From contig CAKOTU010000004.1 of NCBI GenBank assembly GCA_934120265.1, positions 285-64,284 of the forward strand: a stretch of DNA of 64,000 bases. Direction: 5' to 3'. The notes beneath the pieces are model-generated. The model worked only from the letters and a program-made list of their open reading frames with translations. It was not told where the DNA came from and made no database searches. Shown in pieces: positions 3,488 to 59,856 of this stretch (position 1 is its first letter; the number at the start of each line of letters is the position of its first letter). Origin of the DNA: an uncultured Bacilli bacterium (GTDB lineage: Bacteria > Bacillota_I > Bacilli_A > RF39 > UBA660). The position numbers and the translations under genes were made by a program.

Positions 3488-3678
3488 TTGAAAGATTAAA
3501 AATAATTATGTATAATTAATACAGTAAAGGTAGTGATAGTATGGTTAAAGAGATGAATATGAAACTAGCTCAAGCTTCAACCTGGGGGGGGGTTATTTAA
3601 TCATACTATAATATTAAATAGAAAAGAAAACACAAAGTTTCTAGATTTTTTGATAATCTAGATTTCTTTGTGTTTTTT
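3488..3678 (+). promoter_or_regulatory. Leader cassette copy 1: promoter, helix-enclosed mini-ORF with G9 tract, intrinsic terminator
   Basis: TTGAAA(3488)-17 nt-TATAAT(3511). Mini-ORF 3541-3600 encodes MVKEMNMKLAQASTWGGVI. G-run 3584-3592. atagtatggttaaa pairs with tttaatcatactat. Terminator 3630-3678: acacaaagtttctagat / atctagatttctttgtgt plus a T-run. Confidence 0.7.
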
Positions 3679-3823
3679 GTTGAACCTTTATGGATTTATA
3701 AAACAGAAAGAAGTGGTATTATAAGTACAATATTTTAGTGAAAGCTGTATTATGTCTATATGTTTATAATAAATAAAAAGGGGTATAATTAGAATGTATA
3801 ATAAAGAGAGGAGTAAGAAATAT

Positions 3824-5674
3824 ATGAAAAAGAAAGGATTTACTTTAATAGAGTTATTAGCAGTAATAGTAGTACTAGCAATAATAGCGCTAATCGCAAC
3901 ACCAATAGTAACAAGAGTAATAAATTCTAGTAAGGATTCTGCTAATAAAATAAGTGCAAGTAATTTTGCTAGTGAGGCTAATAAGTATGTAATAGAAGAA
4001 AGACTAAGTGGGAATATAAAGAATGGAAATATTTTTAATGAAGTGTCTAAAAGAATGAATGGTAAGAAACCTACTTCGGGAGTAGTTTATGCGGATGACA
4101 ATGGGAATATCGCTTTAGCTTTAGTATTTGATGATAAATGTTATACAAAGGAATACGGTAGTGATGAAATAAAAACAACTGACATTAATGAATGTCATGC
4201 CCCAGTAGATTATTTAGCACTTGGAAATACAGAGAATGATACAGAAGCAACATTCTTTAATGGACCTATCAAAAAAAGTAGTGTTGAAAAAATAGTGTTT
4301 GTAAATAGTAATCTTGTTCCAACAGATGCAATAGGAAAATGGAATGCAAGTGCAAGTGGTGAAGGAGATGTAGTTGCTTGGTACAAAGATGAAGATAAAA
4401 ATAACTTATACGAAGTATATATAGGTGGAAAAGACGGAGTAAAAGCTAATCCTAACTCATACAAATTATTTAATTATTTTACAAACTTAGTAAGTATAGA
4501 TTTAAAATATCTTGATACATCAAGCGTTATAGATATGTCTTTAATGTTTAATGATTGTTTAAATTTGACTACACTTAATTTAAGTAATTTTGATACATCA
4601 AGTGTTACAACTATGGCAGGTATGTTTCAGAACTGCTCCAAATTAATTACACTAGATTTAAGTAATTTTGATACTTCAAATGTTGTAAATATGAGAAATA
4701 TGTTTGCTTGGTGTTCAAATTTAAATGCCTTAGATTTAAGCAACTTTGACACGTCAAACGTTACTACTATGTATAGTATGTTTCAACTATGTTCAAACTT
4801 AACAACATTAGATGTAAGCCATTTTAATACATCAAACGTTACGAATATGTCATTTATGTTTAGCAAATGTTCAAGCTTAACAACATTAGATGTAAGTAAT
4901 TTTGATACATCAAACGTTACGAGTATGAAAGCTATGTTTCAACTATGTTCAAGTTTAACAACACTAGATGTAAGTAATTTTAATACATTGATGGTAACCG
5001 ATATGTCATATATGTTTAGCAAATGCTCAAGCTTAACAACGTTAGATGTAAGTAATTTTGACACCTCAAAGGTAACCAATATGGGATATATGTTTAATGA
5101 ATGCTCAAATTTGACAACATTAGATGTAAGCAATTTTGATACATCCAAAGTAACTGATATATCTCGTATGTTTCAAGGTTGTTCAAAATTAACCTATTTA
5201 GATGTAAGCAACTTTGATACATCGAATGTTACCAATATGCGTACTATGTTTCAAAAGTGTTCAAAATTAACTCAATTAGATGTAAGCAACTTTGATACAT
5301 CAAAAGTAACAGATATGGCTTATATGTTTTATGGATGTTCAAATTTAATAACATTAAACATAAGAGGCTTTAACACAACAAAAGTAACCGATATGAGTTA
5401 TATGTTTGAAAATTGTTCAAGGTTAACTAATTTAGATTTGAGTAGTTTTGAAACTAGTAAGTTACAAAATACGGAGCACATGTTTAATGGAAGTTCAAAA
5501 TTAGCAAATATTAATTTTTCAAAAGCAACATTTAACGCTGTAACTAAATATGATAAGATGTTTGGTGGATGTGGATTAATTAGTATTACAGTAAAAGATG
5601 ACGATGCAAAAACATTTATTGATGCTAGATTAAAAGATTCAAGTATTAATATTGAAGCAACAAAACAAAGCTAG
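3824..5674 (+). CDS. Modular prepilin-type protein: class III signal peptide, ~130-aa pilin-like head, 13 BspA/DUF285-type leucine-rich repeats
   Basis: MKKKGFTLIELLAVIVVLAIIALIATP. RBS gagaggag lies 10 nt before the ATG at 3824; the track start at 3794 has no RBS. The 25-aa periodic unit is LDVSNFDTSNVTNMxxMFxxCSxLTT. Confidence 0.85.
   Translation: MKKKGFTLIELLAVIVVLAIIALIATPIVTRVINSSKDSANKISASNFASEANKYVIEERLSGNIKNGNIFNEVSKRMNGKKPTSGVVYADDNGNIALALVFDDKCYTKEYGSDEIKTTDINECHAPVDYLALGNTENDTEATFFNGPIKKSSVEKIVFVNSNLVPTDAIGKWNASASGEGDVVAWYKDEDKNNLYEVYIGGKDGVKANPNSYKLFNYFTNLVSIDLKYLDTSSVIDMSLMFNDCLNLTTLNLSNFDTSSVTTMAGMFQNCSKLITLDLSNFDTSNVVNMRNMFAWCSNLNALDLSNFDTSNVTTMYSMFQLCSNLTTLDVSHFNTSNVTNMSFMFSKCSSLTTLDVSNFDTSNVTSMKAMFQLCSSLTTLDVSNFNTLMVTDMSYMFSKCSSLTTLDVSNFDTSKVTNMGYMFNECSNLTTLDVSNFDTSKVTDISRMFQGCSKLTYLDVSNFDTSNVTNMRTMFQKCSKLTQLDVSNFDTSKVTDMAYMFYGCSNLITLNIRGFNTTKVTDMSYMFENCSRLTNLDLSSFETSKLQNTEHMFNGSSKLANINFSKATFNAVTKYDKMFGGCGLISITVKDDDAKTFIDARLKDSSINIEATKQS
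4480..5520 (+). repeat. 13 in-frame ~75-bp LRR units (coordinates approximate)
   Basis: I counted 13 [NHGS]F[DNE]T[ST]xV motifs at 25-aa spacing. Confidence 0.8.
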
Positions 5675-5782: not shown

Positions 5783-6887
5783 ATGGAATTAAATGAAATA
5801 TATAGTATTTATAATAAATATCTAGAAAATATCCAAGAATTATGGAGGTTACTTTGACTTTGAAGCTAAAACCAAAGAAATAGAATCACTTGAGTTAAAG
5901 ATGAAAGATCCTAACTTTTGGAATGATAAACGAGAAAGCGAGAAAGCAATTTCTACTGCAAATTCATTAAAAGATATGATAGAAAAAGTAAAGAATCTAA
6001 AAGAAAAAATCGAAAGTAACTTTGAGATGATTGAAGAGTTAAGAAAATCTTATGATGAAGAATTAGTTGAGATGATTTCTAGTGATATAGAGGTTATAGG
6101 TAAGGAATTAGATGAAGTTGAAGTTTTAATGTTATTGTCTGGTCCATACGATAAAGATAACGCCATTGTAGAAATTCACTCTGGCGCAGGGGGAACAGAA
6201 GCTTGCGATTGGGCTAATATGTTATATCGTATGTATACAAGATGGTGTGAAAAGAAAAATTATAAAGTTGAGGTTATTGATAGTCAACCTGGAGAAGAAG
6301 TTGGAATTAAAAGTTTAACAATGTTTGTTAAAGGAATGAATGCTTTTGGATATTTAAAAAATGAAAAAGGAGTTCATCGTTTAGTTAGAATTTCTCCATT
6401 TGATTCAAATGCCAGAAGACATACATCATTTGCATCAATTGATGTAACCCCACTTATAGAAAATAGTGATATTAAAATAGAAATAAATCCTAGTGATATT
6501 AGGGTTGATGTTTATAGAAGTAGTGGTTGCGGTGGACAAGGCGTTAATACAACGGACTCGGCAGTAAGAATTACTCACTTTCCAACTAAGATTGTTGTTA
6601 CTTGTCAAAACGAACGTAGTCAAATACAAAATAAAGAAAAAGCTATGGAAGTTTTAAAAAGTAAGCTTTATCAATTGGAAATGGAAAAAAGAAATAATGA
6701 GTTAAAAGAACTAAAAGGAAATCAAAATGATATTAACTTTGGCTCACAAATAAGAAGTTATGTTATGTGTCCATATTCTATGGTAAAAGATCATAGAACT
6801 AATGTTGAAACAAGTAGCGTTGATAAAGTTTTAGATGGAGATATAGATTTGTTTATTAATGCTAGTTTGAAGGAAGTGAAGAAGTAA
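5783..6887 (+). CDS. prfB: Peptide chain release factor 2, expressed via programmed +1 frameshift
   Basis: ORF0 (5783-5854, MELNEIYSIYNKYLENIQELWRLL) ends at CTT TGA C. The +1 frame continues as DFEAKTKEIE... into the track ORF. GGQ motif present (SGCGGQGVNT). Confidence 0.95.
5844..5858 (+). promoter_or_regulatory. RF2 autoregulatory frameshift site
   Basis: Internal SD-like GGAGG (5844-5848), 3-nt spacer, then CTT TGA C (5852-5858). Confidence 0.9.
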
Positions 6888-9419: not shown

Positions 9420-9610
9420 TTGACAATAATTAATATTAAAAGGTATAATAAAAACAGTAAGGGTAGTGATAGTATGGTTAAAGAGATAAATAAAAATTTA
9501 ACTCAAAACCCGACATGGGGGGGGTATTTAATCATACTATAAAATTAAATAATAAAGAAAACACAAAGTTTCTAGACTTTTTAATAGTCTAGATTTCTCT
9601 GTGTTTTTTT
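9420..9610 (+). promoter_or_regulatory. Leader cassette copy 2 (G8 tract)
   Basis: TTGACA(9420)-18 nt-TATAAT(9444). Mini-ORF 9474-9542 encodes MVKEINKNLTQNPTWGGYLIIL. G-run 9517-9524. Terminator 9561-9610. Only ~52 nt separate the terminator from the ATG, and I see no second promoter. Confidence 0.7.
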
Positions 9611-9662
9611 GTTGTCCCTTTACTAAGTAAAGTAAATCTAAATAAAAGGAGGAGGAAATATT

Positions 9663-11438
9663 ATGAAAAATGAAAAAGGTTTTACTTTAATAGAGTTATT
9701 AGCAGTAATAGTAGTACTAGCAATAATAGCGCTAATCGCAACACCAATAGTAACAAGAGTAATAAATTCTAGTAAGGATTCTGCTAATAAAATAAGTGCA
9801 AGTAATTTTGCTAGTGAGGCTAATAAGTATGTAATAGAAGAAAGACTAAGTGGGAATATAAAGAATGGAAATATTTTTAATGAAGTGTCTAAAAGAATGA
9901 ATGGTAAGAAACCTACTTCGGGAGTAGTTTATGCGGATGACAATGGGAATATCGCTTTAGCTTTAGTATTTGATGATAAATGTTATACAAAGGAATACGG
10001 TAGTGATGAAATAAAAACAACTGACATTAATGAATGTCATGCCCCAGTAGATTATTTAGCACTTGGAAATACAGAGAATGATACAGAAGCAACATTCTTT
10101 AATGGACCTATCAAAAAAAGTAGTGTTGAAAAAATAGTGTTTGTAAATAGTAATCTTGTTCCAACAGATGCAATAGGAAAATGGAATGCAAGTGCAAGTG
10201 GTGAAGGAGATGTAGTTGCATGGTATAAAGATGAAGATAATAATAACTTATACGAAGTATATATAGGTGGAAAAGGTGGAGTAAAAGCTAATCCTAATTC
10301 TACTAAATTATTTAATTATTTTACAAACTTAGTAAGTATAGATTTTAAATATCTTGATACATCAAGTGTTACAAGTATGCAAGCAATGTTTCAGGACTGC
10401 TTTAAATTAACAACATTAGACTTAAGCGGTTTTGATACATCAAAAGTAACCGATATGGGTGGAATGTTTAATGATTGTTTAAATTTAACTACACTAGATG
10501 TAAGCAGTTTTAATACTTCAAACGTTACAAGCATGCGAGCTATGTTTCAAAAGTGTTCGAAACTAACTGCTTTGGATGTAAGCCATTTTGATACATCGAA
10601 TGTTACAAGTATGAGATATATGTTTAATAAATGCTCAAGTTTGACAATATTAGATGTAAGTCATTTTAATACATCAAATGTTACAAGTATGCAAGGAATG
10701 TTTGCCTGCTGTTCAAGTTTAACAACACTAGATGTGAGTCGTTTTAATACTTCAAACGTTACAAGCATGCGAGCTATGTTTGAACTTTGTTCAAATTTAA
10801 CAACATTAGATGTGAGTAATTTTGATACATCAGAGGTAACTAATATGACGTTTATGTTCAGTCAATGTTCAAGTTTAACAATATTAGATGTAAGCAACTT
10901 TGATACATCGAATGTTACAAATATGCATACTATGTTTCAGGACTGTTCTAAATTAAATGAATTAGATGTAAGTAACTTTAATACGTCAAGGGTAACTGAT
11001 ATGGGTGGTATGTTCAGTTTCTTAATAAATATTAAATCATTAGATGTTTCTCATTTTGATACATCAAATGTAACCAATATGAAATCTATGTTTAATGAAT
11101 GCAATAATTTGGAATCTTTAGATTTAAAAAATTTTAGTACAGGATTAGTAACAGATATGAGTTATATGTTTGAAAATTGTTATAAGTTGACTGATTTAGA
11201 TTTGAGTAGTTTTGAAACTAGTAAGTTACAAAATACGGAGCACATGTTTAATGGAAGTTCAAAATTAGCAACAATCAATTTCTCAAAAGCAACATTTAAC
11301 GCTATAACTAAATATGATAAGATGTTTGGTGGATGTGGACTGACTAGTATTACAGTAAAAGATGATGATGCAAAAACATTTATTGATGCTAGACTAAAAG
11401 ATTCAAGTATTAATATTGAAGCAACAAAGGTAAGCTAG
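9663..11438 (+). CDS. Modular prepilin-type protein, paralog of 3824-5674, with 12 BspA/DUF285-type LRR units
   Basis: MKNEKGFTLIELLAVIVVLAIIALIATP with RBS aaggaggagg. Nt 9681-10219 are identical to 3839-4377. The 3' ~290 nt are also near-identical. Confidence 0.85.
   Translation: MKNEKGFTLIELLAVIVVLAIIALIATPIVTRVINSSKDSANKISASNFASEANKYVIEERLSGNIKNGNIFNEVSKRMNGKKPTSGVVYADDNGNIALALVFDDKCYTKEYGSDEIKTTDINECHAPVDYLALGNTENDTEATFFNGPIKKSSVEKIVFVNSNLVPTDAIGKWNASASGEGDVVAWYKDEDNNNLYEVYIGGKGGVKANPNSTKLFNYFTNLVSIDFKYLDTSSVTSMQAMFQDCFKLTTLDLSGFDTSKVTDMGGMFNDCLNLTTLDVSSFNTSNVTSMRAMFQKCSKLTALDVSHFDTSNVTSMRYMFNKCSSLTILDVSHFNTSNVTSMQGMFACCSSLTTLDVSRFNTSNVTSMRAMFELCSNLTTLDVSNFDTSEVTNMTFMFSQCSSLTILDVSNFDTSNVTNMHTMFQDCSKLNELDVSNFNTSRVTDMGGMFSFLINIKSLDVSHFDTSNVTNMKSMFNECNNLESLDLKNFSTGLVTDMSYMFENCYKLTDLDLSSFETSKLQNTEHMFNGSSKLATINFSKATFNAITKYDKMFGGCGLTSITVKDDDAKTFIDARLKDSSINIEATKVS
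10322..11285 (+). repeat. 12 in-frame ~75-bp LRR units (coordinates approximate)
   Basis: I counted 12 F[DNSE]T[ST]xV motifs, one unit (25 aa) fewer than the paralog. Confidence 0.8.
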
Positions 11439-16431: not shown

Positions 16432-18540
16432 ATGAAGAATAATAAGGGTTTTGCAATAAGTAGTGTTGTTTATGCCATGTTAATACTTTTTTTAGGACTT
16501 ATCTTATTAATTTTAGGGAATCTAGCTAGTAGAAAGGCTATGTTTGATAAGGAAAAAAATGAAATACTTATGAGATTTAACGGTTATGAAGGGACCTTAT
16601 GTACTTTGATTGAAGGTGGGGCATATGATATTGGTTCTAAATATGAATGTGAATTAGGTGATAATGATCCAAAAATATTTTATGTTTTGGAATCAAGTGG
16701 AAGTAATATATCACTAATTATGAGTGCTAATGTTGATTCAAACGGGAAAGCTATAACTTCAACAAACATTCCTGATGACAAGGGTTTTTCTGCATGGGTG
16801 ACTCTAGGGGATTATATGTCCGCAGGAGGAACGGCATCTGATTTTGGTAGTGTTGGTGAGAATAGTCTTGGCCCACTTACAGCTTTAAAAAAACTAAAAG
16901 AGTTTACAAAACCATGGAAGAAATTAGCGCCATCACAAATTGTATTACCGACAGCAAATCAGGTAGCAACGGCAGGTGGAGATACAAAGTGGAGCGAAAG
17001 TTCAACCGGCAATGGATTTAGCTCTGCAACGTGGTTATATGATAATTTAAATGGAACTACTAATGCAGTTTCAGGTATATATGGTTATTGGACATCAACA
17101 GCTGTTGCATCCACTTCGAATCGTGCTTGGCGTGTGTACTCAACAGGTAACTTTCTTTCATATTTTGTTTCTTATGATGAAGGATACGGTATACGTCCAG
17201 TAATCACAATTTCAAAATCACAACTAGAAGTACCAATATTGTGTGTAGCTAAGACTACAGCAACAACAGGAAATGTATCTCGAGGAAGATATGAGTATGG
17301 TGATGAATACGAATGTGAATTAGGTGATGGACAAAAAAGAACATTCTTTATTTTGGATAAAACATCTACAGAAGTATCTTTAATAATGAGTGAGAACTTG
17401 GGAGCAGAAGCTGGATGGTGCAGTGATGATGATTGTAAAACAGACAATGTATGGGATAATACAAAAGGTCCAATAACTGCAAAAAGTGAACTTGAAAAAA
17501 GAACTACTAGTTGGAGTAAAATATCAAATAAAACAAAGATTACATTACCAACAGCACAACAAGTAGCAAAAGCCTCTGGCGAAACATTTAATAATTCTTC
17601 TGTTTCTGGGTTAGCAAAATGGTTGTGTGGGAATTTAAAAAGTGTTGTTGGATATTGGACATCAACACAGTTTATTGAAAATACATATGGTGCTTGGTAT
17701 GTTGGCTATAGCAATGATATTCGTGTTGATAGTATTGGAAATGACTATGATTATGGTATACGTCCAGTAATCACAATACCAAAAGCACAAATAAAATCAC
17801 CAAAGGTACAAAAATATAGAAATGGTAGTGAAGTATATTTTAATGTAACAACAGGTGTAAAATGTACATCATCAGATTATACAGAAACACAAAGCAATAT
17901 AGGTGTAAATAGTGGATGTATGAAGTTCTATATTTTTAATGATGATGGTGGTGACACATTAAATTTAATTTTAGATCATAATACAACTGCAACAATTTTA
18001 TGGAATTCAAGTGGAAGTAGTACTAGCGGTCCAAAAGAAGCGTTAACACAATTAAAAACTGATACAGAAAATTGGAATGGAACGGAAACTCCAACAAACT
18101 ATGCGATTGATCAAACAGGCCAAACAAGTGGTGCAAAATATATAATAGATTATAGTGCATACAAGGCAAGATTTATAACAGCACAGGAAGTAGCAACAAT
18201 CACAGGAAATACATCTTGGAATGAAAAAAATGCAAGTAGCGTATTTTACTTTGATACAAATGCAACAAGTAATAGTTCAACATGTCAAAGTGGGGATATA
18301 AGTGGATGCGCTTATGGATGGCTATATGATAGAACAAAACCTGATTGTACGACATATGGATGTAAAAACAATTCAGATAAGTCAACATTGGGATATTGGA
18401 CAGTTTCTCCTCGTGCTGAAAGTATTAGAGAAAATTGGTGCGTTGCTTATGAAGGTTATCTTGGCGATTATATTGTTAACTTCCCAGCTTATTATGGTAT
18501 ACGCCCAGTTATAGAAATATCGGCAAAGAAACTTTTATAA
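16432..18540 (+). CDS. Three-module surface protein with a degenerate pilin-like N-terminus (no Glu+5)
   Basis: MKNNKGFAISSVVYAMLILFLGLILLIL. There are two type-A modules (YECELGD...LIMS...LPTA.QVA...GYWTST...YGIRPVITI) and one type-B module homologous to the 26834 C-terminus. RBS agaggtga. Confidence 0.75.
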   Translation: MKNNKGFAISSVVYAMLILFLGLILLILGNLASRKAMFDKEKNEILMRFNGYEGTLCTLIEGGAYDIGSKYECELGDNDPKIFYVLESSGSNISLIMSANVDSNGKAITSTNIPDDKGFSAWVTLGDYMSAGGTASDFGSVGENSLGPLTALKKLKEFTKPWKKLAPSQIVLPTANQVATAGGDTKWSESSTGNGFSSATWLYDNLNGTTNAVSGIYGYWTSTAVASTSNRAWRVYSTGNFLSYFVSYDEGYGIRPVITISKSQLEVPILCVAKTTATTGNVSRGRYEYGDEYECELGDGQKRTFFILDKTSTEVSLIMSENLGAEAGWCSDDDCKTDNVWDNTKGPITAKSELEKRTTSWSKISNKTKITLPTAQQVAKASGETFNNSSVSGLAKWLCGNLKSVVGYWTSTQFIENTYGAWYVGYSNDIRVDSIGNDYDYGIRPVITIPKAQIKSPKVQKYRNGSEVYFNVTTGVKCTSSDYTETQSNIGVNSGCMKFYIFNDDGGDTLNLILDHNTTATILWNSSGSSTSGPKEALTQLKTDTENWNGTETPTNYAIDQTGQTSGAKYIIDYSAYKARFITAQEVATITGNTSWNEKNASSVFYFDTNATSNSSTCQSGDISGCAYGWLYDRTKPDCTTYGCKNNSDKSTLGYWTVSPRAESIRENWCVAYEGYLGDYIVNFPAYYGIRPVIEISAKKLL

Positions 18541-18591: not shown

Positions 18592-18812
18592 ATAAAAACT
18601 TTGAACTTGAGGAGTAAACTAAAGCGTTTTAAAGAGAGTCTATGGTTGGTGGAAATAGATAAATTAATTGGTTGAAGGTAGCAAGCCAGTTGAATATCTA
18701 AGTAAATAGGATATTACGTATATTATGCGTTAAATAATTAAGGTGTAGAAATACATAAATTAAGGTGGTACCACGTAAACTCACGTCCTTATCTAGGATG
18801 TGAGTTTTTTAT
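18592..18812 (+). promoter_or_regulatory. T-box leader controlling valS
   Basis: Promoter TTGACA(18556)-18-TATAAT(18580). AGAGAG plus distal loop GGTTGGTGGAA. F-box-like GCGTTAA. T-box AAGGTGGTACCACG. Terminator actcacgtcct/aggatgtgagt plus tttttt. The likely specifier is GUA within gaaGGUAGc, but the register is ambiguous. Confidence 0.85.
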
Positions 18813-18832
18813 ATTTTAATAGGAGGAATATT

Positions 18833-21373
18833 ATGTTAGAAAGTAAATATAATCATTTAAGTGTTGAAGATGGAAAATATGAAAATTGGAAAGAGAAGGG
18901 ATATTTTGAGTCTGGTGATTTAAGTAAGAAACCATACTGTATTGTTATTCCACCTCCAAATGTAACAGGTAAATTACATTTAGGCCATGCTTGGGATACA
19001 ACACTACAAGATATTATTATTCGTTATAAAAGAATGGATGGATATGATGCCCTTTGGGTTCCTGGTATGGATCATGCTGGAATAGCAACTCAAGCTAAAG
19101 TCGATAAAAAATTAAAAGAACAAGGCATAAAACCACGTGAAATGGATCGTGAAGAGTGGTTAGAACATGCATGGGCTTGGAAGAGAGAATATGCAGATAA
19201 TATTCATGCACAATGGGCTAAAATGGGATTAAGTTTGGATTATACTAAAGAAAGATTTACTTTGGATGAAGGGCTTAGTAATGCAGTTAAACATGTCTTT
19301 GTAACTTTATATAATGAAGGATTAATATATAGAGGAGAAAGAATTATTAACTGGGATCCTGAAGCTATGACAGCGCTTTCTAATGAAGAAGTAATATATA
19401 AAGATGTAGAAGGTGCATTCTACCACATTAAGTATTTTATAGAAGGAACTAATGATTATTTAGAAGTAGCAACAACTCGTCCTGAAACATTGTTTGGAGA
19501 TACTGCTGTTGCTGTTAATCCTAGTGACGATCGTTATAAACATTTAATAGGAAAAAATGTAGTTCTTCCTATTGTTAATAAGTTAATACCTGTAGTTGGT
19601 GATGAACACGCTGATCCAGAATTTGGTACAGGAGTTGTTAAAATAACTCCAGCTCATGATCCTAACGATTTTGAAGTAGGAAATAGACATAATCTTGAAA
19701 GAGTTATCGTTATGAATCCTAATGGTACTATGAATAAGAATGCTGGCATTTATGAAGGAATGGATCGTTTTGCTTGTCGTGAGAAACTTGTAAATGATTT
19801 AAAAGAACAAGACTTACTTATATCTATTGAACCAATTGTTCATAGCGTAGGTCATAGTGAAAGAACAGATGTAATGGTTGAACCTTATTTATCTAAACAA
19901 TGGTTTGTTAAAATGAGACCTCTTGCAGATAGAGTATTAGAAAATCAAAAAAACAAAGATACAAAGGTTAATTTTGTTCCAGAAAGATTTGAAAAAACTA
20001 TGAATCACTGGATGGAGATTACTTATGACTGGTGTATTTCTCGTCAACTTTGGTGGGGACATAGAATTCCTGCTTGGTATAAAGGTGAAGAAGTATATGT
20101 TGGCATAAATCCACCTGAAGGTGAAGGTTGGGTACAAGATTCAGATGTATTAGATACTTGGTTCTCTAGTGCCTTATGGCCATTTTCAACCCTTGGTTGG
20201 CCAGAAAAAACAGATTTACTAGCACGTTATTATCCTAATAATGTTTTAGTAACAGGATATGATATAATTCCTTTCTGGGTAAATAGAATGACTTTCCAAG
20301 GACTTCACTTTACAGATCAAAGACCATTTAAAGATTGCCTAATACATGGACTTATTCGTGATAAACAAGGACGTAAAATGAGTAAATCATTAGGTAATGG
20401 TGTAGATCCTATGGATGTTATAGAAAAATATGGATGTGATTCATTAAGATTTTTCTTAACAACATCTACTGCTCCTGGTATGGATTTAAGATATGATGAA
20501 GAAAAAGTTGCTTCAACTTGGAACTTTATTAATAAACTTTGGAATGCATCACGTTTTGTTTTAATGAATATTGAGGACTTAACAAAAGATACTTATACAT
20601 TAGATAACTTATCGATTAGTGATAAATGGATTTTAACAAAACGAGAAAACTTGATTAAGACAGTTAGAAAGCATATGGATAATTATGAATTTAACGTTGT
20701 TGGTACAGAACTTTATAGTTTTATTTGGAATGATTTCTGTGATTGGTATATAGAACTTGCTAAAGGAAATATGAATAATACAACAAAGAGTGTACTTCTT
20801 ACTGTATTAACAGATATATTAAAGATGTTGCATCCATTTATGCCATATGTAACAGAAGAAATATATTTGATGTTACCAATACATGATGAATCAATCATGA
20901 TAAGTTCTTACCCAGTATATAATAAAGATTTAGTATTCGAAGACTCTAAAGAATTAGATAATATTATTGATTTTATTGTTAAAGTAAGAACTGCTAAACT
21001 AGAACATAAGATACCAAAAGATTCAAAAGTATATTTTGAAGGTAATTATAAAGATTTAATTTTAAAATCTCTTCGTGTTGCTTCTGAATATTTAATAGAT
21101 AATAGTGATATGGATGGAGTAGAAGTAATTAGTTCAAATAAAAATTATAGAATTAAGTATATGTTTGATACTTCTATTGACAAAGAAAAAGAGTTAGAAT
21201 CACTTCAAAAAGAAAAAGAAAACTTAGAAAATTCTATTGCTAGAAGAAAGAAACTTTTAAGTAATGAAAACTATGTAAGTAAAGCTCCAGAAAATATTGT
21301 TAACAAAGAAAGAGAAGATTTACTAAAAGAAGAGAATGAATTAAAATTAATTTTAGAAAAAATGGGCAATTAA
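18833..21373 (+). CDS. valS: Valine--tRNA ligase
   Basis: HIGH motif ([12 protein letters not shown]), KMSKS, and a C-terminal coiled coil. ATG at 18833 follows aggagg; the track start at 18800 is a GTG inside the T-box terminator. Confidence 0.95.
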
Positions 21374-22105: not shown

Positions 22106-22468
22106 ATGAAAATGAATAAGAAAGGTTTTACTTTAATTGAATTATTAGCAGTTATCGTAGTATTAGCTATTATCGCTTTAATCGCTACTCCAATTGTTAT
22201 GAGTACAATTAATAAAGCTCAAGAAGGTGCAAATAAGAGATCTGTAGAAGGTTACATGAAAGCTTATGAAGCAGCATATTATGAATATATGCTTGAAAAT
22301 GGTGGTGCTGAACCAGCAACTAAATTAACTTCAGGTATTGATTATAATGGTGCTACAGTTACTTGTGAAACAGTTACAGTAACAGCTGATAAAAAATTCA
22401 GTGCTACTTGTACAGTAAATGGTAAGACTTACAAATATGAAAATGGAAAAGCTGATAATAATAAATAA
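22106..22468 (+). CDS. Short type IV pilin / pseudopilin-like protein (120 aa)
   Basis: MKMNKKGFTLIELLAVIVVLAIIALIATPIV, then a ~85-aa head with 2 Cys. RBS ggtggtga, an upstream TTGACT-type promoter and its own terminator. Confidence 0.85.
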   Translation: MKMNKKGFTLIELLAVIVVLAIIALIATPIVMSTINKAQEGANKRSVEGYMKAYEAAYYEYMLENGGAEPATKLTSGIDYNGATVTCETVTVTADKKFSATCTVNGKTYKYENGKADNNK

Positions 22469-26508: not shown

Positions 26509-26701
26509 TTGATATTAAAAAATGAATATTGTATAATAAAGACAGTAAAGGTAGTGATGGTATGGTTAAAGAGAAAAGTATAAACATAACTCAAAACTCA
26601 ACCTGGGGGGGGGGTATATTTAATCATACTATAATAATAAATAAAAAAGAAAACACAAAGTTTCTAGACTTTTTTGTAGTCTAGATTTCTTTGTGTTTTT
26701 T
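26509..26701 (+). promoter_or_regulatory. Leader cassette copy 3 (G10 tract; mini-ORF reads into the terminator)
   Basis: TTGATA(26509)-17-TATAAT(26532). Mini-ORF 26562-26684 encodes MVKEKSINITQNSTWGGGIFNHTIIINKKENTKFLDFFVV. G-run 26605-26614. Terminator 26653-26701. The stop TAG at 26682 lies in the 3' arm of the terminator. Confidence 0.7.
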
Positions 26702-26833
26702 GTTGACCTTTATAGGAAAGGAGTTGTTGTATAAGTACATAAAAATGCCAAAAACATGTATTATGGCTGGATGTTTATTATGAACAAAACAGGGTATAAT
26801 TAAAGTATAAAGTAAATAAGGAGGTAAGAAAAG

Positions 26834-27970
26834 ATGAAAAAGAAAGGATTTACTTTAATAGAATTACTAGCGGTAATAGTAGTATTAGCAATAATAGCAT
26901 TGATTGCAACACCAATAGTAATGAACACAATTAAAAAATCACAAAAAGGAGCAGCTGAGAGAAGTGCAGATAACTATATTGATGCTGTAGAAACAGCAGT
27001 TGCAACAGCAAGACTAGATAATAATGATGTTCCAGATGGAACATACACAATAGATGAAAATGGAAATCTATTAGTACCAAGTTTACCAAATGGCAAATTA
27101 ACAATCGAAATGAATGGAAATAAACCAAAGGGTGGAACAATCACAATAAAGAATGGGCAAGTAACAACTGACTCAAAGATGACAGTAGGAAGTTATGAAG
27201 TATCATACAACCCAACAACAAATAAATATGAAGCGTCAGAAGAAGGAACATCAACTAAAACATATGCAAACGGAGAAGTAGTATATTTTAACGTAACAAC
27301 AGGAGAAAAATGTTCAGCATCAGATTATACAGATGATATCATGGAAAAAGACGGCTGTTTGAAATTCTATGCATTTAATGATGAAGGTGGAAACAAAGTA
27401 AATTTATTACTAGATCATAATACAACAGCAACAGTAGCATGGAATTCAAGTAAAAGTAATACAAATGGTCCAAAAGAAATATTAGATAGTTTAAAAACAG
27501 CTACAGCGTCATGGAAAGGAACGGAAACTCCAGCAAATTATACAATGGATCAAACGAGTAAAACAAGTAAAGCAAGCTATACAATAGATTATAGTGGATA
27601 TAAAGCAAGATTAATAACAGCGCAAGAAATAGCTCAAATAGTAGGCAATACATCTTGGGATGAGAAAAGTGCTAGTAGTGAATATTATTTTGATTCTAAA
27701 TCAAGTTTTGCAAGTTCTACATGTACAAGCGGAAATACAACAGGTTGCCAATATGGATGGCTTTACGATAAAACAAGCGCAAGTTGTACAACATATGGAT
27801 GTTTAAATAATTCAGGTAATAGATACTGGACAGCTTCTTCTTATAGCGGTGATTCTAGTAATGCTTGGTATGTGGATTATAGTGGCTCAATAGGAAATGA
27901 TGGTGTTAACTATCCTGGTTTCTATGGTGTACGTCCAGTTATAGAGGTATTAAAATCTAAACTTTCGTAA
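26834..27970 (+). CDS. Modular prepilin-type protein with a type-B DUF1566-like C-terminal module
   Basis: MKKKGFTLIELLAVIVVLAIIALIATPIVM. The pilin head contains LTIEMNGNKPKGGTITIKNGQV. The C-terminal ~240 aa are collinear with module 3 of 16432-18540 and end in YGVRPVIEV. Confidence 0.85.
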   Translation: MKKKGFTLIELLAVIVVLAIIALIATPIVMNTIKKSQKGAAERSADNYIDAVETAVATARLDNNDVPDGTYTIDENGNLLVPSLPNGKLTIEMNGNKPKGGTITIKNGQVTTDSKMTVGSYEVSYNPTTNKYEASEEGTSTKTYANGEVVYFNVTTGEKCSASDYTDDIMEKDGCLKFYAFNDEGGNKVNLLLDHNTTATVAWNSSKSNTNGPKEILDSLKTATASWKGTETPANYTMDQTSKTSKASYTIDYSGYKARLITAQEIAQIVGNTSWDEKSASSEYYFDSKSSFASSTCTSGNTTGCQYGWLYDKTSASCTTYGCLNNSGNRYWTASSYSGDSSNAWYVDYSGSIGNDGVNYPGFYGVRPVIEVLKSKLS

Positions 27971-33929: not shown

Positions 33930-34096
33930 TTATTGTATAATAAAGACAGTAAGGGTAGTGATAGTATGGTTAAAGAGACAAATGTATTAATTAAAAAATC
34001 AACCTGGTGGGGTATTTAATCATACTATAATAATAAAAAATAAAGAAAACGCAAAGTTTCTAGACTTTTTAGTAGTCTAGATTTCTTTGTGTTTTT
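33913..34096 (+). promoter_or_regulatory. Leader cassette copy 4 (interrupted G tract)
   Basis: TATAAT at 33936; the -35 region falls inside the tmk 3' end. Mini-ORF 33966-34019 encodes MVKETNVLIKKSTWWGI. The tract is ggtgggg at 34006-34012. Terminator 34049-34096. Confidence 0.65.
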
Positions 34097-34228
34097 ATGT
34101 GTACCTTTATAGGAAAGAAGTTGTTGTATAAGTACATAAATGTGTCGAAAACATGTATTATGACTAGATGTTTATAATAAACAAAATAGGGTATAATTAA
34201 AATGTAAATCATAAGGGAGGTAAAAAAG

Positions 34229-35164
34229 ATGAAAAAAAGAGGATTTACTTTAATAGAGTTACTAGCGGTAATAGTAGTATTAGCAATAATCGCACTTATT
34301 GCAACACCAATAGTAATGAACACAATAAAGAATGCTAAGAAAGGAGCTGCAGAAAGAAGCGCAGATAGCTATCTTAAACAATTAGAATTAACAATAGCTG
34401 AAACTAGGTTAGAAAATAAACCAGTATCTGATGGTACATATTCTATAAATGCAGAAGGAAATCTAGAAGGAAATGGTTTAATAACACCATTAGTAGTAGA
34501 AATGAATGGAAATAAACCAACTGGAGGAACAGTAGTAATAACAAATGGCGAGGTATCACCATCAGAAACAAATATGATAATAGGAGAATATAATTTACGT
34601 TATAATGAAACATCAAAGAGCTATACTGCCGAAGTAGCAGTTAAATTATGTAAAAAAGCATCAAGTGTAAATTTAAGCGATTTAAAATTAGGTGATGAAT
34701 TTACATGTGATTTAGGTGATGAAGAATCAACTAAAAACTTAGTATTCTATGTGTTAGAAAAAAATGGTTCACAAGTATCTTTGATTATGAATAAAGTATT
34801 CACAACTCCAGCAGGAGATAAAGTTCCATATTCAATGAAAGCTAATGTATTTAAACTTTTCAAATATACTAAACTAGATGAATCACAAATTACTTTACCA
34901 AGTGGAGAGCAAATTGCCGCAGCAAGTAATAATACAACTTGGACACCAAGTGGTTCTAATACAGCTTTAGTTACAAATCAAATGCCAAATTGGTTAAAAA
35001 CAAATCTAGAGGTTACTGGTACATACTGTTATTGGACATCTACTGAGTTTGATTCTAGTAAACAATGGGGTGCTGGATTAAAAGGTTTATATGCTGAAAC
35101 AGCAACATCTGCAACTTGTGGATTCCGTCCAGTTATAACAGTCTCAACATCTGATTTAGGTTAA
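34229..35164 (+). CDS. Modular prepilin-type protein with one type-A DUF1566-like module
   Basis: MKKRGFTLIELLAVIVVLAIIALIATPIVM. The pilin head contains VVEMNGNKPTGGTVVITNGEV. Module: GDEFTCDLGD...SLIMN...ITLPSGEQIAAA...CYWTST...CGFRPVITVS. Confidence 0.85.
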   Translation: MKKRGFTLIELLAVIVVLAIIALIATPIVMNTIKNAKKGAAERSADSYLKQLELTIAETRLENKPVSDGTYSINAEGNLEGNGLITPLVVEMNGNKPTGGTVVITNGEVSPSETNMIIGEYNLRYNETSKSYTAEVAVKLCKKASSVNLSDLKLGDEFTCDLGDEESTKNLVFYVLEKNGSQVSLIMNKVFTTPAGDKVPYSMKANVFKLFKYTKLDESQITLPSGEQIAAASNNTTWTPSGSNTALVTNQMPNWLKTNLEVTGTYCYWTSTEFDSSKQWGAGLKGLYAETATSATCGFRPVITVSTSDLG

Positions 35165-39023: not shown

Positions 39024-39601
39024 ATTTAGAAGAGTATGCACATAAAAATAATATTCCAATTATGATGAAAGATGGAATTGAATTTTTATTGGATTATATT
39101 AAAAATAATAATATCAAAAACATTTTAGAAATAGGTTCAGCAATTGGTTATTCAGCGATAAGAATGGCTTTAGTAGATGATAGTGTTAGAGTTACAACCA
39201 TTGAAAGAGATGAAGAGAGATATAAAGAAGCTTTAAAAAATATAAAAGATTTTAATTTGAATAGTAGAATAAATGTTATTTTGAGTGATGCCTTTGATGT
39301 AGAACTTAACGATAAATATGATTTAATATTTATTGATGCAGCTAAGAGTCAATACATTAAATTTTTTGAAAAGTTTAAAGAAAATTTAAACGATAATGGA
39401 GTAATTGTCTCTGATAATTTAAATTTTCATGGACTTGTTCATGCAGATGAAAAAGATCTTAGTAGAAATGTCAGAGGTCTTGTAAGAAAATTAAATAATT
39501 ATGTTGACTATTTAAAAAATAATAAAGAATTTGAAACATTATTTTATGATATTGGTGATGGAGTCAGTATCAGTAAAAAGGTAGGTGTTAAAGATGAATA
39601 A
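39008..39601 (+). CDS. Class I SAM-dependent O-methyltransferase (YrrM/TrmR-like)
   Basis: ILEIGSAIGYSAIRMA and IFIDAAKSQY, plus synteny. Confidence 0.8.
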   Translation: MVRILDLEEYAHKNNIPIMMKDGIEFLLDYIKNNNIKNILEIGSAIGYSAIRMALVDDSVRVTTIERDEERYKEALKNIKDFNLNSRINVILSDAFDVELNDKYDLIFIDAAKSQYIKFFEKFKENLNDNGVIVSDNLNFHGLVHADEKDLSRNVRGLVRKLNNYVDYLKNNKEFETLFYDIGDGVSISKKVGVKDE

Positions 39602-40754
39602 AAAAGGATTTACTCTAGTTGAACTTATTGGAGTGGTAGTTATATTAGGACTTATTGCTTTAATAGCGTTTCCAGCTTTATTAAATCAAATTAATACATC
39701 AAAAAATGAAGTAAGTGAGTCAGTAAGGGAATTAGTTATTAGTTCTTCAAAGTCGTATGTTGAGGATGATACTCAACTTGCACCTAAAAAATATTGTATA
39801 ACATTGGAAGAACTTATTGATGGTGGTTATTTAACTGAAGGAATTGTTAGTTCAGAACGTGATAAATTACAAAATAAAAGAGTGATGGTTACTTATTATA
39901 ATAACAAATATAATTATGAATTAGTTGATAGTAAAGATTGTTATATTTGTAAAGGTGTAAAAGCAGTAACAGTAGATGATGCAACCGTTCCTACAGGTCA
40001 GTATAATACTGGAGATGAATATACGTGTGAAGTAAAAAAAGGAACAGAGTATAACTTCTTTGTTATTAGTAGTGATGAAAATAATGTTAATTTATTAATG
40101 GATAGTAACGTTAATTATTATGGTGAATCTGTAAAACTTGTTGATGGAAAAATACCAGATGATATGGAAGGTGATTCAAAGAAAAAGGGTTTAGTTGCTT
40201 TTATATCAGAAGCAGATTATCTAGCTGCAGGTGGATTAAAAGACGATTTTTTTCTTGAGGGTTATGGAACAGGTAATTTAGAAAAGGGTCCGATAACTGT
40301 ATTAAATTATTTAAATTTTGCGACCTCTTTTTGGACCAATATAGAAAATTTAAATGAGGTATATGATTATAGTGTTGATAAAAATGGATATACAATTCGT
40401 AATGAGTTGCAATCTTTAGAAGTTAGACTTAACGGGAAATCTAGACTTATGACTGGAACAGAGTTATTTTCTACAGGGTTTCCATTTGTAACAAAAAAGT
40501 GGATGACAGTGAATTTAAATCCTATAAGCGAAAAAGAGGGAATATATGGTTATTGGAATTTAGCTCCTTATGGCAAGTATGATGTATGGAATGTCAATAG
40601 TGATGGTGGAGATGCAGATGGAACTATAACTATTTATGATGAAAAACAAGGTTCTGTATCAGTTGAAGCTGATGATTTATCTTTTGATAATTATTGTGGA
40701 GTTAGACCTGTAATCACTGTTTCTAAAAGTATGATATACAATGATAACAATTAA
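39594..40754 (+). CDS. Modular prepilin-type protein (second N-terminal subtype) with one type-A DUF1566-like module, embedded in the yrrM-yrrN junction
   Basis: MNKKGFTLVELIGVVVILGLIALIAFPAL. The ATG overlaps the yrrM stop (ATGAATAA) and follows aggtaggtg. Module: GDEYTCEV...NLLMDSN...GYWNL...CGVRPVITVS. Confidence 0.85.
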   Translation: MNKKGFTLVELIGVVVILGLIALIAFPALLNQINTSKNEVSESVRELVISSSKSYVEDDTQLAPKKYCITLEELIDGGYLTEGIVSSERDKLQNKRVMVTYYNNKYNYELVDSKDCYICKGVKAVTVDDATVPTGQYNTGDEYTCEVKKGTEYNFFVISSDENNVNLLMDSNVNYYGESVKLVDGKIPDDMEGDSKKKGLVAFISEADYLAAGGLKDDFFLEGYGTGNLEKGPITVLNYLNFATSFWTNIENLNEVYDYSVDKNGYTIRNELQSLEVRLNGKSRLMTGTELFSTGFPFVTKKWMTVNLNPISEKEGIYGYWNLAPYGKYDVWNVNSDGGDADGTITIYDEKQGSVSVEADDLSFDNYCGVRPVITVSKSMIYNDNN

Positions 40755-56889: not shown

Positions 56890-57107
56890 ATATTAAAAGA
56901 CAAACGAAGAGAGTAGTAATAATAAATTATGTTTAGAGAAGAAGTGGTTGGTGAAAACTTCTAATAAAATATTATGAACTTGCTTTTCTAGTTGCTTATA
57001 GCCGTAGTTCTGCGTTAAAGATTTGAGAGTGTAATAAAATATTATGAAATAAGGTGGTACCGCGATTAATCGTCCTTATATTTATAATATTTTTGTTTTT
57101 TAAGGAG
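56890..57107 (+). promoter_or_regulatory. T-box leader (Leu, specifier CUU) upstream of a small membrane ORF and leuS
   Basis: Promoter TTGAAT(56855)-17-TATAAT(56878). GAAGAGAG, AGAGA bulge, distal loop GGTTGGTGAAA, specifier context atGAA-CTT-g, F-box-like GCGTTAA, T-box AAGGTGGTACCGCG. No canonical terminator is present. Confidence 0.8.
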
Positions 57108-57115
57108 GATTTTTT

Positions 57116-57460
57116 ATGAGATATATTATTATGTTTGTGGTATCGTTTTTAGTGGTTTATTTAGCATATCTTTTTACAGTTATTTTAAATAAGAAAAAAT
57201 TAAAAAAATTTGAAACTAGTAATCAAGCTTTATACTTTAACAAAAAATATAATGTTAAAGTTAGTGATAAAAATGTAAAGTTACTTGCTAATTTAGTAGC
57301 GCTTTCTAATGCATTTATTATTAGTACTACTTTAATTATTATTGATTTAGTACCAAACTATATATTAAAAGTATTAGTTGCGTTTGTAATAATAATTCCA
57401 CTAATTTTAGTTTTGTACCACATTGTTGGTTTAGTAATGTTGAAAAGAGGTAATAAATAA
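57116..57460 (+). CDS. Small membrane protein (3 predicted TM helices) between the T-box and leuS
   Basis: Strong RBS taaggagg. Its stop overlaps the leuS ATG (TAATG). Confidence 0.55.
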
Positions 57461-59856
57461 TGTATGATTTTACAAAGATAGAAAAGAAATGGCAGAAGTA
57501 TTGGGAAGATAATAATACTTTTAAAACAGATATTTATGATTTTAGTAAACCTAAATATTATGCCCTAGATATGTTTCCATATCCATCTGGTGTGGGTCTT
57601 CATGCAGGACATCCAGAAGGATATACAGCAACAGACATTGTTGCACGTATGAAAAGAATGCAAGGATATAATGTTTTACATCCAATGGGATTTGATTCTT
57701 TCGGCCTTCCTGCTGAACAATTTGCTATAACAACAGGAAATCATCCAGAAGGATTTACAAAGAAAAACATTGAAACATTTAAAACACAATTAAAAATGTT
57801 AGGATTTTCTTATGATTGGGATAGAGAAGTTTCTACTTCTGACCCAGATTTTTACAAGTGGACACAATGGATATTTAAACAATTATTTTTAGATGGTTAT
57901 GCTAAATGTGTTGATATGCCAGTTAATTGGTGCGAAGAGTTAGGAACAGTTCTTGCTAATGATGAAGTTATTGATGGCAAGAGTGAGCGTGGAGGATATC
58001 CTGTTGTTAGAAAAAACATGAAGCAATGGGTTATAGATATTCCTGCTTATGCTGAAAAGTTACTTTCAGGTTTAGATGAAATTGATTGGCCTGAATCAAC
58101 TAAGGAAATTCAAAGAAATTGGATTGGAAAAAGTATAGGTGCTCATGTTGATTTTAAAGTAAAAGGTACTAATTCTAAATTTACAGTGTTTACAACACGT
58201 TGTGATACTTTATTTGGAGCAACGTATTGTGTTTTAGCACCTGAACATAAACTTGTCGATATAATAACTACCGAAGAACAAAAAGAAGCTGTTGAAAATT
58301 ATAAGAAGGCATGTGCTTCTAAATCAGATTTAGAAAGAACAGAATTAAATAAAGAAAAGACAGGAGTATTTACTGGGGCATATGCTATTAATCCTGTCAA
58401 TAATAAGGAAATACCTATTTGGATAAGCGATTATGTTTTAGCAACATATGGTACTGGAGCAATTATGGCAGTTCCTGCTCATGATGATCGTGATTATGAG
58501 TTTGCTAAGAAGTTTAATATTCCAATTATTCAAGTTCTAGATGGTGATAGTATTGAAGAACACGCTTACACTAAAGATGGTGTTCATATTAATTCTGAGT
58601 TCCTAGATGGACTTAATAAAGAAGATGCTATTAATAAAATGATTAGTTGGCTTGAAGAAAATAACTGCGGGAAAAAACAAGTTAATTATCGTTTAAGAGA
58701 TTGGATTTTTGCTCGTCAAAGATATTGGGGTGAACCAATTCCAATTATTCACTTAGAAAATGGTAAAGATATAGCGCTTGCTGATTCCGAGTTACCTTTA
58801 ATTTTACCACCATTAGAAGATTATAAAGGTAAGAATGGAAAGGCACCACTTGAAAATGCTACTGATTGGGTTAATGTAGAAGTAGATGGAATTAAAGGAA
58901 AAAGAGAAACTTCTACAATGCCTGGTAGTGCAGGTTCAAGTTGGTATTTCTTAAGATATATTGATCCACATAATAATGAATGCTTAGCTGATAAAAAATT
59001 ATTGGAACATTGGATGCCTGTTGATTTATATGTTGGTGGTCCAGAACATGCTGTTGGACATTTATTATATTCTAGAATGTGGAATAATTATTTATATGAT
59101 AAAGGAATTGTTCCAGTTAAAGAACCATTTAAAAAATTAGTACATCAAGGAATGATCTTAGGTTCAAACGGTATTAAAATGGGTAAAAGATATCCTGAAT
59201 ATGTTGTAAATCCAAACGATATTGTAAAAGAATATGGTGCTGATACATTAAGACTTTATGAGATGTTTATGGGGCCATTAGAAGCTGATAAACCATGGAA
59301 TGATGATGCTGTTGATGGTGCTAAAAAATTCTTGGATAGAATATGGAGACTTTATACTGAAGAAAATAAAATAACAGATCAAGCGAATGCAAATCTTGAA
59401 AAGATTTATCACAAAACAGTTAAGAAGGTAACTAGTGATTATGAATCTTTAAGTTTTAATACAGCTATTAGTCAAATGATGATATTTATTAATGCCATTT
59501 ATAAAGAAGAAGTATTTCCTGTAGAATATGCAAAAGGATTATTAAAACTATTAAATCCAATTGTACCACATATTACAGAAGAACTATGGAGTGAAGTATT
59601 TAAAGAACAAAATACTATCGCTTATGAACCATGGCCTACATATGATGAGTCAAAGACAATAGATGATACTTATGAATTAGTAGTTCAAGTAAATGGAAAA
59701 GTACGTGGAAAAATAGAAACACATACAGATACTACAGAAGAAGAAATGAAAGAAAAGGCTTTACAAATTGAAAATGTAAAGAAACATTTGGAAGGATTAC
59801 AAATTGTAAAAGTTGTTACTATTCCTAAAAAATTAGTTAGTATTGTTGCAAAATAG
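57460..59856 (+). CDS. leuS: Leucine--tRNA ligase
   Basis: HIGH-type motif ([12 protein letters not shown]) and a variant KMSKS-type motif (GIKMGKR), with the long editing-domain insertion. Confidence 0.95.

Follow-up and report, generated by a model that had tools for sequence, protein, structure and literature searches.

Four homologous leaders of ~160 nt, each preceding a large gene for a type IV pilin-like protein that is a probable adhesin, are probably phase-variable transcription attenuators. They lie in a window of 64,000 nt, the whole stretch of DNA analysed here, which has a GC content of 27.8%. A G tract within a leader mini-ORF would set the reading frame, and with it the place where the ribosome stops relative to an intrinsic terminator. 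A preliminary description had interpreted the leaders as a stochastic ON/OFF or graded switch coupled to translation. The computational checks of that interpretation, from tract lengths at orthologous loci to comparative signs of translation, all favour it, and none of the results refutes it. Translation of the mini-ORF, prevention of termination by this translation and switching within populations are what we infer from the sequences.

The leaders display a common order of elements. A sigma-70 promoter and an SD-like site are followed by the 5' arm of a helix (P1), which contains the ATG, by a hypervariable segment of ~30 nt, the G tract, a terminator and the pilin-like gene. The promoter of copy 3 (TTGATA-17-TATAAT, 26509-26537, + strand) matches at 11 of 12 positions in the promoter scan. 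Copy 1 possesses an equivalent promoter (TTGAAA-17-TATAAT, 3488-3516), copy 2 a 12/12 match (TTGACA-18-TATAAT, 9420-9449), and copy 4 a good -10 box (33936-33941) with a poor -35 box, TTTCTT. The SD-like site of copy 3, AAAGGTAGTGAT (26547-26558, + strand), has a GGTAG core ending 7 nt upstream of the mini-ORF ATG, and its AARGG block is kept in all 20 distinct leaders. The consensus of the Firmicute SD is AAAGGAGGTGAT, with which the site agrees at 10 of 12 positions. The mini-ORF of copy 3 (26562-26684, + strand) is read in the frame named C here and encodes 40 residues, MVKEKSINITQNSTWGGGIFNHTIIINKKENTKFLDFFVV; this ORF is identical in three orthologues (L014, L015 and L016).

The two arms of P1, at 26557-26570 and 26619-26632 (+ strand) in copy 3, form a 14-bp helix in RNAalifold predictions made with 4 and with 20 sequences, and the ATG at 26562 is located within the 5' arm. 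All 14 pairs are kept, the changes being one-sided only, from A-U to G-U; the predicted pairing is plausible and consistent with the alignment, short of proof by covariation. Speculatively, P1 might serve as a pause hairpin, restrict initiation to a co-transcriptional ribosome or stabilise the 5' end. A 19-nt A/T-rich linker precedes the predicted intrinsic terminator (26649-26701, + strand), which is composed of a 12-bp lower stem, an internal loop, an 8-bp upper stem and a U run. The hairpin has a dG of -22.9 kcal/mol, and its upper stem is detected by the terminator scan. Across the leader alignment, several changes in the modelled stem are compatible with G-U pairing, and one pair is compensatory. 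Predictions for all four copies include both the 14-bp helix and the terminator hairpin, and the copy 3 leader has a minimum free energy of -44 kcal/mol (z = -5.7).

The other three leaders are also on the + strand. Copy 1 (3519-3678) carries G9, a 19-aa mini-ORF in frame A (3541-3600) and a terminator at 3626-3678. Copy 2 (9453-9610) carries G8, a 22-aa mini-ORF in frame B (9474-9542) and a terminator at 9557-9610. Copy 4 (33944-34096) possesses a 17-aa mini-ORF in frame A (33966-34019) and a terminator at 34045-34096. Translation thus returns the four lengths given in the preliminary description (19, 22, 40 and 17 aa for copies 1-4), together with the copy 3 stop at 26682-26684. A variant of the terminator is found in one allele of locus 1 (L029, 1380-1538), in which the upper stem is re-written as AAACTAGGG...CTCTAGGTTT without loss of pairing; the long frame of this allele comprises 36 aa and has its TAA stop in the loop of the terminator.

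Between terminator and gene, a post-terminator region occurs in two forms. The long form, ~140 nt, is found in copies 1 (3679-3823), 3 (26702-26833) and 4 (34097-34228), and the short form, ~55 nt, in copy 2 (9611-9662); one locus can hold either, as seen when the orthologue L007 is compared with copy 1 of the window. The long form harbors an inverted repeat, TAAGTACAT...ATGTATTA, and a GGGTATAAT box without a -35 box. No second sigma-70 promoter passes the promoter scan between terminator and gene, the box included, which is retained as a caveat only. The long form may nevertheless be a second regulatory layer or an activator-dependent promoter, and such a promoter, within the conserved ~140-nt block of copies 1, 3 and 4 with its TATAAT, could bypass the attenuator. 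In addition, ACCUUUA(U/C) at 26706-26712 is complementary to the 5' GUAAAGGU at 26546-26553, which overlaps the SD of the mini-ORF, and equivalent positions exist in the other copies. A long-range pairing of the two, formed only in read-through transcripts, could be envisaged; a small local hairpin involving ACCUUUA(U/C) is also possible.

The G tracts stand out against the composition of the window. G9 (3584-3592), G8 (9517-9524) and G10 (26605-26614) are the sole G or C runs of at least 6 nt in all 64,000 nt, and three runs of at least 8 G's are observed where an i.i.d. model expects 0.05 per window. Copy 4 harbors an interrupted tract, GGTGGGG (34006-34012). All four occupy the same alignment column of the homologous leaders, which confirms, with the same coordinates, the earlier claim that the only long G runs sit at the homologous leader position. 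A conserved 31-nt block of the leaders matches four times in the window and never in shuffles. An nhmmer profile search of the window finds exactly four leader copies, every one on the + strand. The structural pilin genes carry no tract according to the homopolymer scan of the window.

Within the mini-ORF of copy 3, the tract (+ strand) is read as (T)GG GGG GGG GG. GGG had been supposed to be rare in so AT-rich a genome; it indeed represents 7.3% of the Gly codons, and no other in-frame GGG-GGG is found in the 39 long ORFs. On the basis of this codon rarity, ribosomes might pause at these codons, or the leader might be sensitive to tRNA-Gly.

The position of the stop relative to the terminator depends upon the frame in which the ribosome leaves the tract. 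In copy 3, frame A would end at a TAA (26621-26623) within the 3' arm of P1, 25 nt upstream of the terminator. Frame B would end at a TAA (26632-26634) at the 3' edge of P1, 14 nt upstream, and frame C ends at the TAG in the 3' arm of the terminator, 36 nt into it. When tract lengths are simulated, these three outcomes recur with a period of 3. It had been predicted that one G fewer in copy 1, or one more in copy 2, would shift these leaders to frame C; in the simulation, G8 in copy 1 and G9 in copy 2 do give the long frame. In the window as assembled, only locus 3 is in the long frame.

Comparative evidence indicates that the mini-ORF is read as a frame. The ATG frame contains no stop in 13 variable-region haplotypes, against 1-3 in each of the other two frames. 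A shuffled variable part stays open with a probability of ~0.4 per haplotype, giving a product of ~0.01 for the five haplotypes that are independent and were retrieved by means other than ORF calling. The variable part measures 42, 45, 48 or 54 nt, every indel being a multiple of 3. Furthermore, synonymous changes are observed: CCG ACA versus CCA ACC keeps Pro-Thr-Trp, and CTA versus TTA keeps Leu. Downstream of the tract, frame C shows a single stop, always at one position, among 13 distinct versions that include 10 different A/T-rich linkers, whereas frames A and B show 2-6 stops. All 20 distinct leaders have an SD-like site ahead of the ATG. The supposition that the mini-ORF is translated thus gains from the absence of frame-0 stops, the triplet indels, the synonymous changes and the SD-like site. 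Together these signs form good comparative evidence, short of proof, for a frame that is read and a long frame that is kept open.

Orthologous loci were taken from independent gut metagenome assemblies via their flanking proteins. The tract calls are consensus sequences of short-read metagenomes at 3-40x coverage, some contigs being at 3-5x. At locus 3, G9 and G10 are each found four times (the window being one of the G10 cases), and G11 and G12 once each. G9 and G10 occur on one identical leader haplotype, and G9, G11 and G12 on another. At locus 2, the seven assemblies divide into G8 (three, always with CCG ACA) and G9 (four, always with CCA ACA). At locus 1, G9 is found in all seven assemblies (the window, L024-L028 and L029), suggesting that switching there may be slow or selected against; in L029, a T lost after the tract leads to the long frame. 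At locus 4, GGTGGGG is identical in three assemblies. Overall, tracts range from G6 to G12 at orthologous loci, all three frames occur as natural alleles, and any frame change shifts the stop by 11-63 nt relative to the terminator. The comparison between strains that had been proposed as a check therefore shows differing lengths at loci 2 and 3 and an invariant interrupted tract, the latter being predicted by slipped-strand mispairing. The tracts display the over-representation against composition, the variable length and the stability of interrupted versions that characterize contingency loci working by slippage in a homopolymer.

The mechanism that we favour can be put as follows. The strong promoter would give rise to a transcript whose first ~60 nt encode a short leader peptide. 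The tract would gain or lose G's by slipped-strand mispairing at replication, moving the ribosome among the three frames. In frames A and B, the ribosome would stop 25 or 14 nt upstream of the terminator, the hairpin would form, and the gene would be OFF, or, for frame B, weakly expressed. A ribosome in frame C would cross the 5' arm and the loop and stop in the 3' arm; the hairpin would then be unable to form in the wake of RNA polymerase, and transcription would reach the pilin gene (ON). As the loci would switch independently, a clonal population would display differing combinations of pilin-like proteins. Since tract length makes no difference in the folding predictions, a read-out through translation is needed. 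In Firmicutes, transcription often proceeds uncoupled from translation, and this, together with the ATG sequestered by P1 at about -13.6 kcal/mol, counts against the mechanism; according to the folding model, a folded P1 could block translation of the mini-ORF.

Leaders and genes also appear to be exchanged. In a relative whose FtsX is 95% identical, loci 1 and 2 are syntenic and hold leaders with G8 and G6. In this relative, the gene syntenic to 9663-11438 after ftsX (L043, 10266-11393) is an unrelated pilin-like gene alike in its first ~30 aa only; at locus 2, the adhesin cassette has been replaced and the leader kept. The variable part of the copy 3 leader (26574-26604, 30 nt), compared with orthologues L002-L005 and L012-L016, differs at about one third of its positions between strains whose downstream pilin is 100% identical. 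Its haplotypes recur at other loci, that of L016 at locus 3 being of the locus 2 type, which suggests gene conversion between leader copies. Four contigs (L001, L030, L032 and L039) end within the leader; the many metagenome contigs broken there are expected for a multi-copy repeat of ~160 nt, and short-read assemblies consequently under-report leader loci.

A broader interpretation, entertained as a possibility and less likely than the plain attenuator, is that of a lineage-wide, multi-locus contingency system in this gut Bacilli clade, which would combine three features. Its output would be graded: frame A off, frame B partial, with the ribosome ~4 nt from the stem base, and frame C on. P1 would hide the ATG, and only a ribosome loading co-transcriptionally would act. 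Finally, recombination would use the conserved leader as a handle for exchanging unrelated pilin-like cassettes, and variable segments of the leader, among loci and strains.

Returning to the attenuator with a frame-dependent output, its first true rival, which we consider unlikely, keeps the attenuator and removes the switch: termination would be constitutive, or regulated otherwise through translation efficiency or a post-terminator factor, and the tract would be a mutational hot spot without a selected role. The distribution of the leader family bears upon this point. With instances outside the window included, 43 leaders with 20 distinct sequences keep the same anatomy and are always located directly upstream of an N_methyl gene and on its strand. 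A search of public proteins with the 40-aa product returns 11 related ORFs of 38-43 aa, each fetched example being directly upstream of an N_methyl gene; related ORFs in public protein sets span 34-43 aa overall. Such a protein-level search misses short-frame locked alleles such as copy 4. Several family members harbor decayed tracts (PTWVGL, PTWRRF, TLVIF) in the long frame, hence the design of a leader ORF running into a terminator exists without a repeat. Related leaders devoid of any G tract (L023; P0022-P0030) indicate that the tract is an add-on and not the core of the element. That such tract-less leaders keep the long frame (L023; P0022-P0024, P0027, P0029 and P0030) fits a hot spot without function, as do the uniform G9 of locus 1 and the conserved 140-nt post-terminator block, whose inverted repeat and TATAAT box suggest further regulation. 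Against it, G8-G12 runs persist at many loci although the GC content is 28%, GGG is rare and no further run of at least 6 nt is present, which is difficult to account for unless they are selected, and with all three frames represented at orthologous loci, the stop is necessarily displaced relative to the terminator. At the nucleotide level, a GTDB genome scan matches the exact 23-nt 5' block at two loci only, both from a single MAG of this species (uncultured Bacilli, CAKPHO01), exact matching thus revealing no wider distribution, and a JGI metagenome scan with a 20-nt block gives four matches, all due to chance and inside unrelated genes.

It is improbable, more so than the hot spot, that the leader works at the RNA level, with the tract binding a C-rich sRNA (RoxS/RsaE type) or a protein, or pairing with terminator pyrimidines as in pyrG, its length tuning the interaction, and with the mini-ORF being incidental. 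P1 and the 5' block hardly vary, a feature of structured RNAs, the G runs are able to pair with the U/C-rich 3' arm, and the post-terminator ACCUUUA is complementary to the 5' GUAAAGGU. Folding, however, provides no read-out of length: on one backbone and without a ribosome, the terminator has a pairing probability of 0.99-1.0 from G5 to G13, P1 and terminator fold the same throughout, and no RNA-only effect of tract length is predicted. An antiterminator of the pyrG kind was rejected, the 5' arm of the terminator, GAAAACACAAAG, being purine-rich and beyond sequestration by poly-G; the tract, moreover, lies ~60 nt from the transcription start, unlike in pyrG. Rfam contains no family reaching its gathering score, and searching up to E = 10 yields chance-level matches of less than 16 bits only. 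An RNA-level element also leaves the triplet-periodic indels, the synonymous changes and the frame-specific lack of stops unexplained, and c2 retains Pro-Thr-Trp although the AACC/GGUU pairing option is lost in it. An invertible element, with the P1 arms as its inverted repeats, was likewise discarded: the arms are only ~48 bp apart, all 43 copies point the same way, and the neighbourhood contains no recombinase gene.

That the mini-ORF encodes a functional small peptide, signal or bacteriocin-like with a Gly-Gly site, the tract switching its C-terminus and the pilin being regulated separately, is very improbable. The (P/S)TWGG motif is fairly conserved through synonymous changes, and long-frame products of 38-43 aa are called as genes in public data. 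The N-terminal half, however, is hypervariable even where the downstream pilin is identical, and the C-terminal half is set by P1 and the terminator and changes with the hairpin sequence (L029, P0028-P0030). The family is tiny, an exhaustive profile search giving 11 clusters at 50% identity among 1.84 billion representatives, and neither a transporter nor a peptidase gene accompanies the leaders in the window or at the fetched loci. A double-glycine leader peptide was rejected, its hydrophobic pattern being unfit and the residues after GG frame-dependent. Least credible of all, short-read homopolymer assembly errors could be invoked for the length differences, long G runs being error-prone for Illumina and some contigs shallow, but the lengths are reproducible by haplotype (at locus 2, G8 with CCG and G9 with CCA in every case), locus 1 and the interrupted tract are uniform, and paralogues within the single window assembly differ in G number.

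The attenuators would act on a defined subset of genes. The copy 3 gene (26834-27970, + strand) encodes a 378-aa type IV pilin-like protein with a Pfam N_methyl match, the N-terminal methylation motif. The copy 1 (3824-5674, + strand) and copy 2 (9663-11438, + strand) genes encode pilin-like proteins with DUF285/LRR repeats, and that of copy 4 (34229-35164, + strand) another pilin-like protein. All four downstream genes possess the N-terminal type IV pilin methylation motif, and two the DUF285/LRR repeats. The copy 2 leader is located after the upstream gene's own terminator, and leader and pilin gene therefore form a separate transcription unit. The leader loci, at least four per genome, are scattered among housekeeping genes.

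Three other pilin-like genes of the window are without a G-tract leader. That at 22106-22468 (120 aa) has its own promoter and probably encodes the major pilin. Another, at 39594-40754, overlaps the stop of the upstream methyltransferase gene, and the third (16432-18540, 702 aa) has a degenerate KGFAISS N-terminus. The G-tract switch is limited to four large pilin-like genes, of 311-626 aa. The lineage is known from uncultured Bacilli MAGs of human gut samples (Hadza, Nepal and others) and encodes sporulation and germination proteins. Other RNA elements of the window comprise two T-box leaders (18592-18793 and 56900-57080; 118 and 106 bits). The former lies upstream of an 857-aa ORF (18800-21373), whose syntenic gene in the relative (L043) encodes a class I tRNA-synthetase matching Val_tRNA-synt_C, and the latter upstream of ORFs at 57116-59856. 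The RF2 (prfB) ORF (5901-6887, 328 aa) is called from an internal ATG; an upstream programmed +1 frameshift site is usual in prfB.

If the favoured interpretation is true, only one other system is known whose transcription terminator is controlled by a DNA repeat within a leader-peptide ORF. These leaders would be the first such case to use a homopolymer, to act on type IV pilin-like proteins and to come from an uncultured commensal of the human gut. The design would then have arisen independently, and it is probably under-detected because gene callers miss ORFs of 17-24 aa. The ON/OFF state of several adhesin genes could be read from metagenome sequence alone. The pilin-like proteins, at least four, large and rapidly replaced, two of them with DUF285/LRR, are likely surface structures exposed to the host or to phages.

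Several known systems share parts of this design. Homopolymers underlie contingency loci such as Neisseria pilC (poly-G), the poly-G genes of Campylobacter and the poly-C promoters of Bordetella fim. The leaders resemble them in having a hypermutable tract, surface or adhesin targets, several independent loci and interrupted tracts as "locked" alleles. In those loci, however, the tract is located in the structural gene or in the promoter spacer, whereas the tract of the present leaders belongs to a distinct mini-ORF upstream and would act via termination. E. coli pyrBI and other leader-peptide attenuators sense nucleotides or charged tRNA through pausing or stalling. There too, the leader ORF extends into an intrinsic terminator, whose hairpin is blocked by a ribosome following closely behind RNA polymerase; the tract-less leaders (L023) resemble the simpler pyrBI-type design. 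The variable here would instead be a heritable change of frame, and folding of the leaders reveals no alternative antiterminator hairpin. In Clostridioides difficile, cwpV and flgB are switched by site-specific DNA inversion, with Rho-dependent termination in the case of flgB. They share with the switch proposed here that transcription of a surface-structure operon in a gut Firmicute ends prematurely within the 5' leader, in a phase-variable manner, and differ in having neither leader peptide nor repeat tract. In B. subtilis pyrG, G's added at the 5' end during initiation pair with the pyrimidine-rich 5' arm of the terminator. A G run of the leader RNA upstream of an intrinsic terminator is found in both cases; here, in contrast, the tract is genomic and ~60 nt downstream, the 5' arm is purine-rich, and no pairing is seen in folding.

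The closest counterpart is found in S. gallolyticus, the only case of a simple sequence repeat in an attenuator uORF retrieved by our literature search. Its pil1 and pil3 operons are preceded by a leader ORF with GCAGA repeats and a stem-loop terminator (Danne, Dubrac, Trieu-Cuot and Dramsi 2014, PLoS Pathog, PMC3894217). Out-of-frame changes in repeat number lengthen the peptide, place its stop within or beyond the terminator and raise transcription, and mutants altered in the ATG or the stop codon, or lacking the terminator, proved the dependence on translation (PMC3894217). Expression is low when the stop lies at least 28 nt upstream of the terminator, and high when it lies immediately upstream or inside (PMC3894217). 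By this calibration, frame A (25 nt) should be low and frame C high, frame B (14 nt) being uncertain. By analogy, this work supports the proposed mechanism with an experimental precedent within the Bacilli.

Both systems comprise a promoter, a leader ORF with an RBS, a repeat within that ORF and a terminator before the pilus genes, and in both the repeat number would determine the frame and the frame the position of the stop relative to the terminator. Both have more than one pilus locus per genome and a gut Bacilli host, and the terminators are of similar stability (-18.7 and -28.2 kcal/mol in S. gallolyticus, -22.9 here). They differ in the repeat, a GCAGA pentamer of 13-22 units over 110 nt versus a G homopolymer of 6-12, and in the targets, sortase-assembled pili versus type IV pilin-like N_methyl proteins. 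Here, moreover, the entire short ORF is bracketed by a 14-bp helix in which its ATG is hidden, three distinct stop positions exist, and at least four loci are present per genome; function is proven there and proposed from sequence here. The leaders show no homology to that of S. gallolyticus, being devoid of GCAGA repeats and having a different ORF and hairpin. At the sequence level, every other hallmark of the S. gallolyticus switch appears to be present: a promoter followed by a short ORF with a putative ribosome-binding site, a simple repeat in this ORF with a unit number that varies among strains (G6 to G12), an intrinsic terminator predicted between leader ORF and structural gene, and a change in repeat number that moves the stop from 25 or 14 nt upstream of the terminator to 36 nt inside it. 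The leaders described here and that of pil1 thus seem to be of the same kind by mechanism, not by descent. The logic of the switch would accordingly not be new, and the present leaders appear to constitute an unrelated, homopolymer-based and multi-locus instance of it.
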